Source: Chitinophagaceae bacterium
Lineage (GTDB): Bacteria; Bacteroidota; Bacteroidia; Chitinophagales; Chitinophagaceae
Direction of reading: 5' to 3'
DNA length: 64,000 nucleotides
Assembly: GCA_046296295.1 (NCBI GenBank)
Contig: JBKBLG010000004.1
Location: forward strand, 60,187-124,186
The notes under the pieces are model-generated. The model was not told where the DNA came from and made no database searches. It worked only from the letters and a program-made list of their open reading frames with translations. The translations under genes were made by a program, and so were the position numbers. Positions 386 to 63,347 of this stretch are shown here, piece by piece. Numbering within the stretch: position 1 is the stretch's first letter; every line of letters begins with the position of its first letter.

Positions 386-399
386 CCTTACGGTAAATA
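386..399 (+). repeat. 14-mer family copy (CCTTACGGTAAATa, 13/14)
   Basis: Intergenic, between the korA terminator and the tRNA-Phe 3' end. Confidence 0.8.
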
Positions 400-429
400 A
401 AAACGCCTCAGTACATACTGAAGCGTTTG

Positions 430-502
430 TGGTGTGGGCCGGGATCGAACCGGCGACACAAGGATTTTCAGTCCTTTGCTCTACCGACTGAGCTACCGCA
501 CC
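430..502 (-). tRNA. tRNA-Phe (anticodon GAA)
   Basis: Reverse complement reads GGTGCGGTAGCTCAGTCGGTAGAGCAAAGGACTGAAAATCCTTGTGTCGCCGGTTCGATCCCGGCCCACACCA. It folds as a cloverleaf with anticodon loop CTGAAAA and a T-loop TTCGATC. One acceptor-stem mismatch; CCA is not encoded. Confidence 0.9.
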
Positions 503-552
503 TTTTTTGTTCGGGTGGCAAATATAGGAGGGCATCGTAAATCTGCCAAGTA

Positions 553-566
553 TTTTTACCGTAAGG
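553..566 (-). repeat. 14-mer family copy (ttTTTACCGTAAGG, 12/14)
   Basis: In the divergent tRNA-Phe/recA intergenic region, about 83 nt upstream of the recA ATG. Confidence 0.7.
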
Positions 567-615
567 TTAAAAATAAATTTGTCTAAATATTTTAGCAAAA
601 TGTTAGAGAATCAAA

Positions 616-623
616 TATTTTTG
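616..623 (+). promoter_or_regulatory. Candidate Bacteroidota -7 promoter box for recA
   Basis: TATTTTTG matches the TAnnTTTG -7 consensus of Bacteroidota sigma-A promoters, 27 nt upstream of the recA ATG. Confidence 0.35.
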
Positions 624-649
624 TACACCATCAAAAAAAAATAATTCGC

Positions 650-60347: not shown

Positions 60348-60794
60348 ATGCCACAACAGATATTTTTCCATCAAGCCGATCGTAAGTTAACTCTACAACA
60401 TAAAAATCAATTAAAACAATTTATTACTACCATATTTATACAAGAAAATAAACCACTAGAACGATTAGACTATATTTTCTGTAGCGATACCTACCTACTG
60501 ACTATTAATCAAAACCATCTACAACACGATTATTATACCGATATCATCACCTTCGATTTATCAAACGACACAAAACAACCCACTATTGGTGAAATTTATA
60601 TCAGTACAGATCGAGTAAAAGATAACGCCATACAACACAATACCACATTTACGCAAGAAATGCTACGTGTTATTTTTCATGGAGCCTTACACTTATGCGG
60701 TTATAAAGACAAATCAAAAAAACAAGCCCAACTAATGCGACTTAAAGAAGAAGAATACTTACGTAAATATGTTTCACATAACACAGTTTCTTAG
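60348..60794 (+). CDS. ybeY: rRNA maturation RNase YbeY
   Basis: The HGALHLCGYKD zinc-binding motif (H..H....H context) and a size of 148 aa. Confidence 0.9.
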   Translation: MPQQIFFHQADRKLTLQHKNQLKQFITTIFIQENKPLERLDYIFCSDTYLLTINQNHLQHDYYTDIITFDLSNDTKQPTIGEIYISTDRVKDNAIQHNTTFTQEMLRVIFHGALHLCGYKDKSKKQAQLMRLKEEEYLRKYVSHNTVS

Positions 60795-60843
60795 TGAAAC
60801 ATTCATTTACTAAAATTGTAAAGGTTTCACATAACACAGTTTC
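60771..60843 (+). repeat. 20-nt direct repeat GTTTCACATAACACAGTTTC (60771-60790 and 60824-60843)
   Basis: Copy 1 forms the last codons of ybeY. Copy 2 lies 53 nt downstream, just upstream of the inserted hypothetical gene. Confidence 0.9.
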
Positions 60844-60873
60844 AATAAGAAACATCAACTAGTTTTGCATCTT

Positions 60874-61452
60874 ATGGAATCAAAAGATGTTTTTAAAGAA
60901 AAACGTAGGTGGCAAATTGCATTACGTAGGTATATCCTAGAGAAAAAACCAAGTACGCAATATGTACAATATTATGGAATTACTATTGAGGGTTTTCGAA
61001 CATGGATTGCAATGCAATTTATTAATGGTCAATCTTGGGATAACTTCGGAACGAATTGGCAATTCGAACATGTAGTTCCTGTTGCCTACTTCGATTTAAC
61101 AAAAGAAGCAGATAATAAACTCTGTTGGAACTTTACAAATATTCACGTAAGTAGTATATCAATTCAAACACCGCATCAAGGAGTTTCAATTTTAGCTGCG
61201 AAAAAATATTTTGAAAAGATGTATGAAGCAAGTGGATACCCTATTTGTGCAGCTATGCTTGCTAAAATTAACACTATTGAGCAAACAACAATGCACGCAG
61301 AAACTGCACTAGCAACTTTTCTTCAGAACCAGAAAACATTCTTAAATGCTTTAACAAATGCTTCCATTGAAGACTATCTTCGATTAAATGATGGTTTAAC
61401 ACCAGAAGATTTTTTACTAGAAAGAACCCTATTTCAAAAATTCGCTGTCTAA
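60874..61452 (+). CDS. Hypothetical protein with a degenerate HNH-like segment
   Basis: WQFEHVVPVAYFDL....DNKLCWNFTNIH loosely resembles the W.xDHxxP....F...C.....N core of HNH/beta-beta-alpha-Me nucleases, with His-Asp replaced. It sits between ybeY and mnmG. Confidence 0.4.
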   Translation: MESKDVFKEKRRWQIALRRYILEKKPSTQYVQYYGITIEGFRTWIAMQFINGQSWDNFGTNWQFEHVVPVAYFDLTKEADNKLCWNFTNIHVSSISIQTPHQGVSILAAKKYFEKMYEASGYPICAAMLAKINTIEQTTMHAETALATFLQNQKTFLNALTNASIEDYLRLNDGLTPEDFLLERTLFQKFAV

Positions 61453-61462
61453 TATTATTTTC

Positions 61463-63331
61463 ATGTATCCTTTGTACGATGTTATTGTTGTAGGTGCGGG
61501 TCATGCCGGTTGTGAAGCTGCTGCCGCTGCTGCTAATATGGGTAGTAAGGTATTACTCATTACCATGAATATGCAAACCATTGCCCAAATGAGCTGTAAT
61601 CCTGCTATGGGTGGTATTGCAAAAGGTCAGATTGTTCGTGAAATTGATGCTATGGGTGGTTATAGTGGTATTGTAACCGATAGAAGCCTCATTCAATTCC
61701 GCATGCTTAATAAAAGCAAAGGACCAGCCATGTGGAGCCCAAGAGCACAAAGCGATAGAATGTTGTTCGCAGCTACATGGCGTGAAATGTTGGAACAAAC
61801 ACCTAATGTTGATTTCTATCAAGATATGGTGAAAAGCATCATCATAAAAGATGGTAAAGCTTGTGGTGTAATTACAGGCTTAGGAAATGAAATAAAAGCA
61901 AAAGCTGTAGTTGTTACAAGTGGAACGTTCTTAAACGGTATCATTCATATTGGTGAAAAACAATTGGGTGGTGGCCGCATGGGCGAAAAAGCAGCTACCG
62001 GAATTACAGAACAATTAATTGCGTATGGCTTTGAAAGTGATCGTTTAAAAACTGGTACCCCTCCACGCATCGATGGACGTAGTTTGGATTACTCTAAGAT
62101 GGAGGAACAAAAAGGCGATGATGAGGTGGTTGGCTTTAGCTATTTAAACGTTCCAAAAATTACGGCAGCTCAACAACGCAGTTGCTATATTACTTATACC
62201 AGCCCCGAAGTACATGAGATTCTAAAAACGGGCTTCGATAAAAGTCCTATGTATGCAGGTCGCATCGAAGGCGTTGGCCCGCGGTATTGCCCCAGCATAG
62301 AAGATAAAATCAATCGCTTTGCCGATAGAGAACGCCATCAGTTATTTGTAGAACCAGAAGGTTTTAATACTGTAGAAATATATGTGAATGGTTTTAGTAC
62401 TAGCCTACCTGAAGAAGTACAACACCAAGCGCTACGCATGGTACCAGGTTTTGAAAATGCAAAATTTTTCAGACCAGGCTATGCCATTGAATACGATTAT
62501 TTTCCGCCAACACAACTAACCCATTCGCTTGAAACCAAAGCCATTGGTAACTTATTTTTTGCCGGACAAATTAATGGTACCACAGGCTACGAAGAAGCAG
62601 CTTGCCAAGGATTAATGGCAGGTATTAATGCACACCAAAAAGTGAACCATCAAGCACCTGTAATCTTACAAAGAAGTGATGCTTACATTGGAGTGCTTAT
62701 TGATGATTTGGTGAATAAAGGTACCGACGAACCTTACCGCATGTTCACAAGTCGTGCAGAATTTAGAACCCTACTCCGTCAAGATAATGCCGACCTACGC
62801 TTAACAGAACTAAGTTATCGTTTGGGCCTAGCCTCACAAGAACGTATGAACTTAGTACGTGCCAAGCAAGAAGGTGTACAACATATCATTCAACATCTAC
62901 AAACCACTGGCATCGAACCAAACACTATCAACCCATTTTTTGAAAGTATTGGTAGTGCTACCATCAGTGAAAAAACAAAGGGTGCCAAAATTGTTTTGCG
63001 CCCAAATGTAACCTTACGGCAAATGATGGATGCTGTACCTACCCTACATGCATCGCTAAATCATTATCCAGAAGATACATTACTGCAGGCCGAAATTCAA
63101 GTGAAGTACGAACGCTATTTGCAAAAAGAACAAGAGTTGGTAGATAAAATGCAACAGCTCGAAAACTTGGTAATCCCTGAAAATTTTCAGTACGAAAAAC
63201 TTGCAGCCATTAGCAACGAAGCTTTACAAAAGTTCAATAAAATTCGTCCACGTACACTTGGGCAAGCCAGCAGAATTTCAGGTGTTAACCCCAGTGATAT
63301 TCAAATATTAATGGTGTATATGGGGCGTTAA
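61463..63331 (+). CDS. mnmG: tRNA uridine-5-carboxymethylaminomethyl(34) synthesis enzyme MnmG (GidA)
   Basis: 622 aa. FAD motif YDVIVVGAGHAGCEAA, GPRYCPSIEDK, and the C-terminal RPRTLGQASRISGVNPSDI. Confidence 0.97.
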   Translation: MYPLYDVIVVGAGHAGCEAAAAAANMGSKVLLITMNMQTIAQMSCNPAMGGIAKGQIVREIDAMGGYSGIVTDRSLIQFRMLNKSKGPAMWSPRAQSDRMLFAATWREMLEQTPNVDFYQDMVKSIIIKDGKACGVITGLGNEIKAKAVVVTSGTFLNGIIHIGEKQLGGGRMGEKAATGITEQLIAYGFESDRLKTGTPPRIDGRSLDYSKMEEQKGDDEVVGFSYLNVPKITAAQQRSCYITYTSPEVHEILKTGFDKSPMYAGRIEGVGPRYCPSIEDKINRFADRERHQLFVEPEGFNTVEIYVNGFSTSLPEEVQHQALRMVPGFENAKFFRPGYAIEYDYFPPTQLTHSLETKAIGNLFFAGQINGTTGYEEAACQGLMAGINAHQKVNHQAPVILQRSDAYIGVLIDDLVNKGTDEPYRMFTSRAEFRTLLRQDNADLRLTELSYRLGLASQERMNLVRAKQEGVQHIIQHLQTTGIEPNTINPFFESIGSATISEKTKGAKIVLRPNVTLRQMMDAVPTLHASLNHYPEDTLLQAEIQVKYERYLQKEQELVDKMQQLENLVIPENFQYEKLAAISNEALQKFNKIRPRTLGQASRISGVNPSDIQILMVYMGR

Positions 63332-63333
63332 TA

Positions 63334-63347
63334 CATTTACCGTAAGG
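63334..63347 (-). repeat. 14-mer copy (CATTTACCGTAAGG, exact)
   Basis: 2 nt after the mnmG stop codon. Confidence 0.85.

Follow-up and report, generated by a model that had tools for sequence, protein, structure and literature searches.

A hyper-abundant 14-base word in one lineage of Chitinophagaceae: a possible self tag resembling DNA uptake sequences

The window and its most abundant word

The stretch of DNA discussed here, referred to as the window, comprises 64 kb of contig JBKBLG010000004.1 of a Chitinophagaceae bacterium. It harbours, among others, recA (650-1684, + strand), radA (41636-43009, +), rho, asnS, gpmI, uvrB and mnmG, and it encodes a type IX secretion system (T9SS) sorting domain and a 622-aa Rho, pointing to Bacteroidota. 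Throughout most of its length the window is studded with copies of a 14-base word, CCTTRCGGYAAATG. A preliminary description of the stretch had reported at least 32 exact matches; exactly 32 are present (14 on the + strand and 18 on the - strand), at the positions that it had listed. Dinucleotide shuffles of the window yielded 0.01 copies on average and never more than 1, and Markov models of order 1-5, trained on the window itself with the word copies left in, predicted 0.004-0.06 copies, so that within the window the excess over shuffled and modelled sequence is evident. Besides the exact matches there are 12 copies with one mismatch and 7 with two substitutions (at least 10 near-matches had been described), and an indel-tolerant search for copies with 0, 1 and 2 errors found 32, 12 and 19, against 0, 0.15 and 4.6 expected. 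At no more than one mismatch 23 copies are on the + strand and 21 on the - strand, which agrees with the near-equality of orientations described before. The commonest 8- to 12-mers of the window are all fragments of this same word.

The true consensus is a single word, CCTTACGGTAAATG, which nearly all intergenic copies match. All 12 one-mismatch copies deviate at position 13 or 14; the word is made up of a hard core of the first 12 bases and a softer last two. In a logo built from the 44 exact and one-mismatch copies the information falls to about zero immediately beyond the 14 positions, leaving only a weak T-A preference at -2/-1. As the flanks hold no information, the copies are not the cores of a longer repeat. 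A larger repeat with alignable flanks, an alternative raised in the preliminary description, was indeed not seen, the flanks sharing nothing, and a miniature inverted-repeat transposable element (MITE) or other longer repeat was ruled out by the logo together with the flank divergence. Summed over the logo, the word contains ~25 bits of information, while ~11.5 bits are enough to specify its frequency. Its core, TTAC-N-GTAA, is a dyad. Single copies do not form hairpins; some copies are arranged as inverted pairs with 11-41-nt loops, which fold well, at -14 to -17 kcal/mol. When the motif-free island described below was removed and inverted pairs were collapsed, the copies were found to be spaced more evenly than by chance (coefficient of variation 0.65, against 0.98 for random placement; P=0.002).

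Placement in spacers and genes

About 60 % of the copies are intergenic, in a genome that is ~90 % coding, and for the exact copies a crude gene map gave the split reported before, 20 intergenic and 12 coding. Copies are present in 6 of 10 convergent intergenic regions, 7 of 13 longer co-directional spacers, 3 of 10 divergent regions and 1 of 23 short operon spacers. Several intergenic copies form inverted pairs. Between aspA and rho the consensus copies at 8380-8393 (+) and 8405-8418 (-) are the left and right arms of a hairpin of -16.7 kcal/mol; a similar pair of consensus copies lies at 18871-18884 (+) and 18899-18912 (-), and the consensus copy at 34344-34357 (+), located at the right junction of the island, is the left arm of a pair with an exact C9 copy at 34399-34412 (-). 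A one-mismatch copy 12 nt past the recA stop codon (1697-1710, +; position 14) is paired with an exact, intergenic G5 copy at 1731-1744 (-), and the exact copy abutting the uvrB stop codon (57373-57386, +) forms an imperfect pair with a copy of a second word at 57358 (see below).

The preliminary description had called such pairs terminator-like. They are capable of forming hairpins; the genuine terminators, consisting of a GC-hairpin and a T-run, are separate and sit alongside the word (45.87-45.92, 47.87-47.91, 40.59-40.62 and 20.56-20.59 kb), and the pairs were rejected as terminators on this ground. The gap between stop codon and terminator is often occupied by the word, as in the case of the consensus copies that lie 4 nt (45848-45861, -) and 6 nt (47839-47852, -) off the stop codon. 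Other consensus copies are found 5 nt from a stop codon beside a terminator (40635-40648, +) and beside the terminator hairpin of a convergent intergenic region (15650-15663, -). A quarter of the intergenic copies lie within 12 nt past a stop codon, including a consensus copy 2 nt past that of mnmG (63334-63347, -); a one-mismatch copy lies 3 nt past a stop codon at 10560-10573 (-). Consensus copies also occur in a divergent intergenic region (3248-3261, -), upstream of radA (41584-41597, +) and in intergenic DNA at 59453-59466 (+). Exact C9 copies are located upstream of rho (10415-10428, -; intergenic) and at 2042-2055 (-; intergenic or inside a small open reading frame (ORF)). One-mismatch copies deviating at position 14 are intergenic at 23694-23707 (+) and 49880-49893 (+), and others lie at 386-399 (+; CCTTACGGTAAATA, position 14) and 49657-49670 (-; position 13). 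Twice the terminal ATG of a consensus copy serves as a start codon, namely that of gpmI (18970-20535; ATG 20533-20535, copy 20533-20546, -) and that of an acyl carrier protein (ACP) phosphodiesterase gene (ORF 46612-47244; ATG 46612-46614, copy 46601-46614, +). The A-rich stretch before the ATG of the word may suit Shine-Dalgarno-independent initiation in Bacteroidota.

Inside genes the variants of the word follow the reading frame. Two of the frames used, sense xCC-TTA-CGG-YAA-ATG and antisense CAT-TTA-CCG-YAA-GG, would acquire an in-frame TAA from the consensus, and all copies there read CAA; in the remaining two (L-T/A-V/A-N and F-T-V/A-R) variants of the word alter an amino acid. The sense frame L-R-Q-M is used by the exact copies at 4256-4269 (-), where C9 avoids TAA, and 5401-5414 (+), and the antisense frame H-L-P-Q-G by those in an alpha-amylase gene (36600-36613, -), where G5 avoids TAA, in a meaB-like gene (48765-48778, +) and at 55502-55515 (-). 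Exact copies in asnS (L-A-V-N; 12903-12916, +) and at 51694-51707 (L-T-V-N; -), the latter conserved in sisters L138 and L140, are in sense, while F-T-A-R at 39650-39663 (-) and F-T-V-R at 53350-53363 (-) are antisense. Exact copies in sense also occur in coding sequences at 44651-44664 (+; G5, C9) and 54462-54475 (+). One-mismatch copies lie in coding sequences at 2962-2975 (+; exact in sister L005), 12505-12518 (-; position 13), 37833-37846 (+; position 13) and 56470-56483 (+; position 13), in gpmI at 19766-19779 (+; position 14, antisense; exact in sister L147), and at 51774-51787 (+; position 13, antisense) in the gene that also holds the copy at 51694. The R/Y variants are mostly coding copies that dodge an in-frame TAA or keep an amino acid. 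The word had been described as fourfold degenerate; this did not hold, the degeneracy being a compromise with coding and not a property of the signal. The ideas that R/Y belongs to the signal or reflects a covarying dyad were likewise rejected: A-T, A-C and G-T combinations occur, G-C is rare, and the variants follow the reading frame.

Distribution, conservation and origin of the copies

The inverted pair, in which 28 bases are specified, was searched for in ~185,000 species-representative genomes; the 16 loci returned were all in the Chitinophagaceae metagenome-assembled genome (MAG) DALYLQ01, a congener with 85-91 % DNA identity where it overlaps the window. Searches of 5.8 billion proteins with UvrB, MnmG and an MFS protein revealed a tight clade at 91-100 % identity; the next Chitinophagaceae follow at 82-86 % (nearest outgroups: UvrB 86 %, MnmG 82 %), with nothing between. 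Clade DNA was fetched around these three genes, a sampling made without regard to the word; all members sampled (L138-L141, L147 and L149) contain the word at 0.6-0.7 per kb, and at least four sister species at 85-92 % DNA identity carry it, mostly at orthologous sites. No copy with at most one mismatch was found in 106 kb from five outgroup loci, among which Deminuibacter soli, and the sampled outgroup loci did not contain an alternative hyper-abundant 10-mer. On these samples the word appears to be restricted to one genus-level lineage of uncultured Chitinophagaceae.

Copies occupy orthologous positions in species that differ at 10-15 % of bases, and there are no surrounding indels. When each region of the window was compared with one congener, intergenic copies were found to be identical at 97.9 % of motif bases, against 66-76 % of the adjacent 1-20 nt, and coding copies at 98.6 %, against 84-87 %. 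Identity over all 14 bases was observed in 21 of 27 aligned copies, compared to 19 % of random 14-mers. Since identity drops outside the word, the conserved footprint is exactly 14 bases; conservation of the motif beyond that of its flanks, proposed as a check in the preliminary description, is thereby established for these congeners. How copies arise is seen in mnmG, where the exact copy at 63012-63025 (+) encodes T-L-R-Q-M at codons that read G-L-S/T-D-L-T in outgroups. The variable loop of MnmG has changed from GLSDLT to TLRQMM with its length unchanged, by the DNA change GGATTGAGCGACTTAACC to ACCTTACGGCAAATGATG; ~120 outgroup orthologues, of equal length, have D-L-P-S-L, G-L-S-D-L and similar sequences where T-L-R-Q-M is found here. 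The loop was rewritten without an indel; new copies therefore arise through substitutions, even where these change several amino acids.

Orientation was analysed in 174 kb of non-redundant clade DNA. Copies within 10 nt after a stop codon are in gene orientation in 11 cases and opposite in 10, and coding copies are in sense in 32 cases and antisense in 21. This absence of an orientation preference with respect to transcription favours a strand-symmetric signal at the DNA level. Polarity at the RNA level had been suggested by the window, in which 7 of 9 post-stop copies are one-directional; it was rejected, as the bias is gone in the larger sample.

A second, minor word is also specific to the clade. 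It reads (Y)ACTTACGTAAATG and consists of the half-sites of the main word minus one G, giving a perfect TTACGTAA core with zero spacing. The window contains 7 exact copies, against ~0.7 expected even at one mismatch or less, and 224 kb of clade DNA contain 29 (~0.13 per kb); outgroups have none. It was found also in L138, L140, L005 and L149. The copies in the window are at 5732-5743 (+; ACTTACGTAAAT), 6849-6860 (-), 37619-37630 (+) and 57358-57369 (-), and in coding sequences at 38231-38242 (-), 59698-59709 (-) and 60757-60768 (+). Pairing of the minor word is possible both between its own copies and with the main word, as at 57358, where its partner is the main-word copy at 57373. A separate dialect lineage for the minor word was considered and dropped, the single metagenome match being from the same clade.

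Imported DNA, recombination and competence genes

The only long motif-free stretch in the window is found at 23.7-34.3 kb. It contains a 9.2-kb insertion (25137-34343, no strand assigned) with a type I restriction-modification (R-M) cassette (hsdM, PIN, hsdS, hsdR) that is absent from sister L147, in which 246 bp separate yicC from the MFS gene; the homologous sequence breaks off at window position 25136 and is picked up again at 34344. The gap in the sister shows that the cassette is an indel specific to the window genome, and it was used as a negative control for the word. At native density ~7 copies would be expected in the island and none is present, in agreement with the absence from foreign DNA claimed before.

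Exchange of DNA between species of the clade was studied in 11 kb aligned for the window (53.1-64.0 kb), L138 and L140. The pattern of informative sites switches every 1-3 kb (maximum chi-square 404): L138 and L140 are joined by 334 sites at 55-57 kb and by 53 at 61-64 kb, whereas the corresponding counts for the window and L140 are 51 and 348. Around mnmG the window and L140 lineages share 97-99 % identity over one block of 2.5 kb or more. These mosaic patterns show frequent short-tract homologous exchange between species, which is compatible with transformation and no proof of it.

The preliminary description had pointed to comF and radA. Indeed, radA is followed by a gene for a ComF-family phosphoribosyltransferase (43041-43748, +; E=4e-23, below the curated cutoff), and recA is present as well. 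The ComF-family gene belongs to a conserved string, radA - comF-family - 467-aa lipoprotein (41636-45179), of which the last member has a beta-helix-like sequence and a choice-of-anchor Q C-terminal domain. This comF-adjacent lipoprotein was considered as a clade-specific receptor and rejected, the family being widespread (~1,000 representative clusters at E<1e-30).

A possible DNA-uptake-like self tag

It is suggested that the word is a DNA-uptake-sequence-like self tag of this genus-level lineage, a tentative reading to which we assign a probability of about 0.45. It was ranked first because the density, strand symmetry, origin by substitution, positional conservation, absence from the island and mosaicism fit it best. 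The ~25 bits of the word, against ~11.5 needed, and the excess of exact over degenerate copies also fit discrimination between self and foreign DNA better than an operator or the site of a nucleoid protein. From the computational analysis we infer both an uptake receptor as the reader of the word and biased uptake. A sequence-specific receptor of the competence apparatus would bind double-stranded fragments bearing the word, with the first 12 bases as the recognized core and the last two counting less. DNA of conspecifics would preferentially be taken up and then be recombined by RecA, RadA, ComF and DprA, and word-bearing alleles would be over-transmitted. In this way the word would build up by point substitution where tolerated, i.e. 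past stop codons, in spacers, in permissive frames and in variable loops, and existing copies would be shielded from decay.

In published work uptake sequences are confined to Neisseriaceae and Pasteurellaceae, and a self tag in this lineage would be the first uptake sequence outside Proteobacteria and new for Bacteroidota. Among 8 million papers and preprints, searched by string and by topic, no report was found of the word, which the preliminary description had not recognized from the literature either, or of a hyper-abundant word of any kind in Bacteroidota. Riemerella columbina, a member of the Bacteroidota, is naturally competent and prefers its own DNA, with no motif described (PMC7965970).

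The window word resembles the DNA uptake sequence (DUS) of Neisseriaceae (10-12 nt, read by the minor pilin ComP) in its frequency of ~1 per kb on both strands, its mostly intergenic location with copies also in genes, its inverted pairs near gene ends, its conservation at orthologous sites, its depletion in imported islands and its occurrence in a recombining species group; even its weaker last positions have a counterpart in the 12-mer extension of the 10-mer DUS. It differs in being found in Bacteroidota, in its greater length (14 nt), in its dyad core, in its restriction to a genus without dialects and in its pairs, which are not terminators. With the uptake signal sequence (USS) of Pasteurellaceae (a 9-nt core plus AT-rich flanks) it shares accumulation by point substitution, frame preferences, a location in variable protein segments and positional stability between species. 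However, the USS has extended AT-rich flanks, whereas the information of the window word stops at the edge of the 14-mer, and most USS copies are genic, whereas ~60 % of the window word copies are intergenic. The cyanobacterial word HIP1 (GCGATCGC) is likewise hyper-abundant, conserved and of debated function, and a role in transformation was recently proposed for it (bioRxiv 10.64898/2026.06.24.733823). HIP1, however, is an 8-bp perfect palindrome that occurs phylum-wide and has dedicated methyltransferases, in contrast to the asymmetric, 14-bp and genus-restricted word of the window. The word is best described as uptake-sequence-like, in a new phylum, longer, dyad-cored and genus-restricted, with a non-trivial chance that it is something categorically different.

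Several observations weigh against an uptake tag. Known DUS and USS are family-wide, occur with dialects and are without dyad symmetry. The window word has a dyad core and ends at a genus-level boundary, and in the outgroup loci sampled no family-wide spread and no dialect lineage were found. The dyad core and the coexisting zero-spacing word suggest a dimeric or two-module reader, unlike recognition of the ComP type. About half of the uptake sequences of the known families lie inside terminators, whereas those of the window are separate from the word. The even spacing may simply mirror the gene-length intervals of intergenic regions. Among the sequences available, which cover ~6 % of a genome, no competence genes besides recA, radA and comF were seen, and 225 kb did not contain a prepilin/pilin signature. 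The idea of an uptake signal put forward in the preliminary description is the best fit to all computational tests made, with the competence machinery seen in that ~6 % limited to those three genes. The receptors of the two known proteobacterial families took decades to find. One of the two is still only predicted (bioRxiv 10.1101/2025.06.16.659825).

Of the other explanations, the binding site of a clade-specific abundant DNA-binding protein with a cellular task such as segregation, occlusion or the organisation of the chromosome, or else a genome-wide self mark for a complex of repair or defence, with each site under purifying selection, is considered unlikely, though worth serious attention. 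The dyad core TTAC/GTAA and the occurrence of two words that differ only in half-site spacing lend some support to this idea, which had also been put forward before, and the sharp 14-bp conserved footprint, fairly regular spacing, retention at orthologous sites and strand symmetry are in line with it. However, ~25 bits are far beyond the need for one site per ~1.5 kb, the excess of exact over degenerate copies is unlike known sites of nucleoid proteins and regulators, and the rewriting of five MnmG residues implies a strong force per site rather than thousands of weakly selected sites. To our knowledge there is no nucleoid protein with such a site. Somewhat less likely again is a genome-wide self barcode, in which a clade-specific two-headed reader would recognize the half-sites [C/A]CTTAC and GTAAATG at a spacing of 1 or 0; the word would be written by biased conversion or repair, and own and incoming DNA would be told apart, e.g. 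for licensing repair and recombination or restraining defence. Molecular drive without uptake, in which sequence-directed repair, nicking or gene conversion turns near-matches into the word and repairs decayed copies, is regarded as improbable. It would explain the origin by substitution even at amino-acid cost, the maintenance of 98-99 % identity and the absence from newly inserted DNA, and restriction to a clade would follow from the gain of one enzyme; very-short-patch repair and a mechanism proposed for cyanobacterial HIP1 are analogues. Drive alone, however, leaves the regular spacing and inverted pairs unexplained, no candidate enzyme was seen in the window, and we know of no repair system that reads a 14-bp asymmetric word.

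The rest can be given very little weight. A signal at the level of RNA or transcription, such as a part of a terminator, an RNA-binding site or the operator of a global regulator (e.g. the SOS repressor), would suit the post-stop copies, the pairs near terminators and the presence of recA, uvrB and radA in the window, yet the copies have no preferred orientation, many are inside genes, real terminators are separate, and an Rfam scan detected tRNA only and no match for the word; this is thought very improbable. The SOS boxes published for Bacteroidetes are GGA-N5-TCC, CTAA-N5-TTAG and TTAC-N5-GTAA. An SOS operator was rejected, as the spacer of the word is N1 or N0 and not N5 and copies are found in genes and at 3' ends. 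Even less probable is a very short mobile element that a transposase has dispersed, of the repetitive extragenic palindromic (REP), REPIN or MITE type. Some copies are inverted doublets in intergenic DNA, like those of REP/REPIN systems with a REP-associated tyrosine transposase (RAYT), some pairs fold well and most copies are intergenic. REPs, however, are hairpins, exclusively intergenic, strain-variable and accompanied by a RAYT gene, and the word has none of these traits: single copies lack a hairpin, the flanks share nothing, a third of the copies are inside ORFs without an indel relative to outgroups, positions are stable across species, and neither a RAYT nor a transposase is present in the window. 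The short REP-type element proposed in the preliminary description was abandoned on these grounds. A polar chromosome signal such as Chi or an FtsK-orienting polar sequence (KOPS), which like the word is over-represented in native DNA, is just as hard to credit, since the 14 copies on the + strand and 18 on the - strand are interspersed over 64 kb with no strand skew and the known Chi and KOPS words are all much shorter than 14 bases.

If the word is indeed an uptake tag, it represents an independent, young and genus-restricted case, implying that self-tagging of genomes evolves repeatedly, and the comparison of motif-bearing with motif-free sister genera offers a clean design for finding the reader. 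If it is not, some unknown agent rewrites protein loops genome-wide, which would be at least as interesting. The word could be used as a marker to distinguish native from imported DNA and to bin metagenomic contigs of the lineage.

Minor observations

Matches of the word to viral contigs were chance singletons, except for two arrays of clustered regularly interspaced short palindromic repeats (CRISPR), and a phage origin was rejected. In these arrays (IMG/VR contigs L048, 7389-7699, and L102, 7259-7843; contig GC ~30 %) the repeat is 36 nt long (GTTGTGATTACCTTACGGTAAATGGTTACTAACAAT; 30-nt spacers) and has the exact 14-mer as its apical part. The array of L102 is of type I and adjoins cas3, cas6 and a TnpB/Cas12f-like gene. 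A link of the word to the CRISPR repeat was dismissed, as the copies in the window do not extend into the repeat flanks; the 14-mer inside the repeat is probably a coincidence.

The right junction of the R-M island is at the exact 5' edge of the copy at 34344. A second indel is a 4.1-kb HxlR/ThiJ/oxidoreductase block that is present in sisters and one outgroup and deleted in the window (window 53083-53098 compared to L138 16299-16315); it starts 2-3 nt from a copy whose window sequence has decayed (CCAACGGTAAATG). No copy adjoins the third indel, an Eco47II-like gene after L147 20666. Two of the three junctions thus abut a copy and the third does not, which may be due to chance, and the motif was rejected as an integration site. 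At 20678-21332 L147 carries a gene for an Eco47II-type restriction enzyme where the window has glutathione peroxidase; the species therefore differ at several loci in their R-M content.

The R-M island has a repeat of its own, with ~11 copies of a 42-nt GC-rich double-hairpin unit, AATTCCCCTCCnnTGGAGGGGTGGTCGCAGACCGGGGTGGTy, in hsdM (26518-26763) and hsdR (30235-30318, 31116-31185, 31560-31645, 32383-32424 and 33067-33108). The units are single or in tandem and in both orientations, and leave the hsdM and hsdR ORFs unbroken, being translated in different frames as Gly/Pro-rich inserts of 14 residues. They resemble in-frame palindromic insertion elements (Rickettsia RPE-like), and within the window they were found in this island only.

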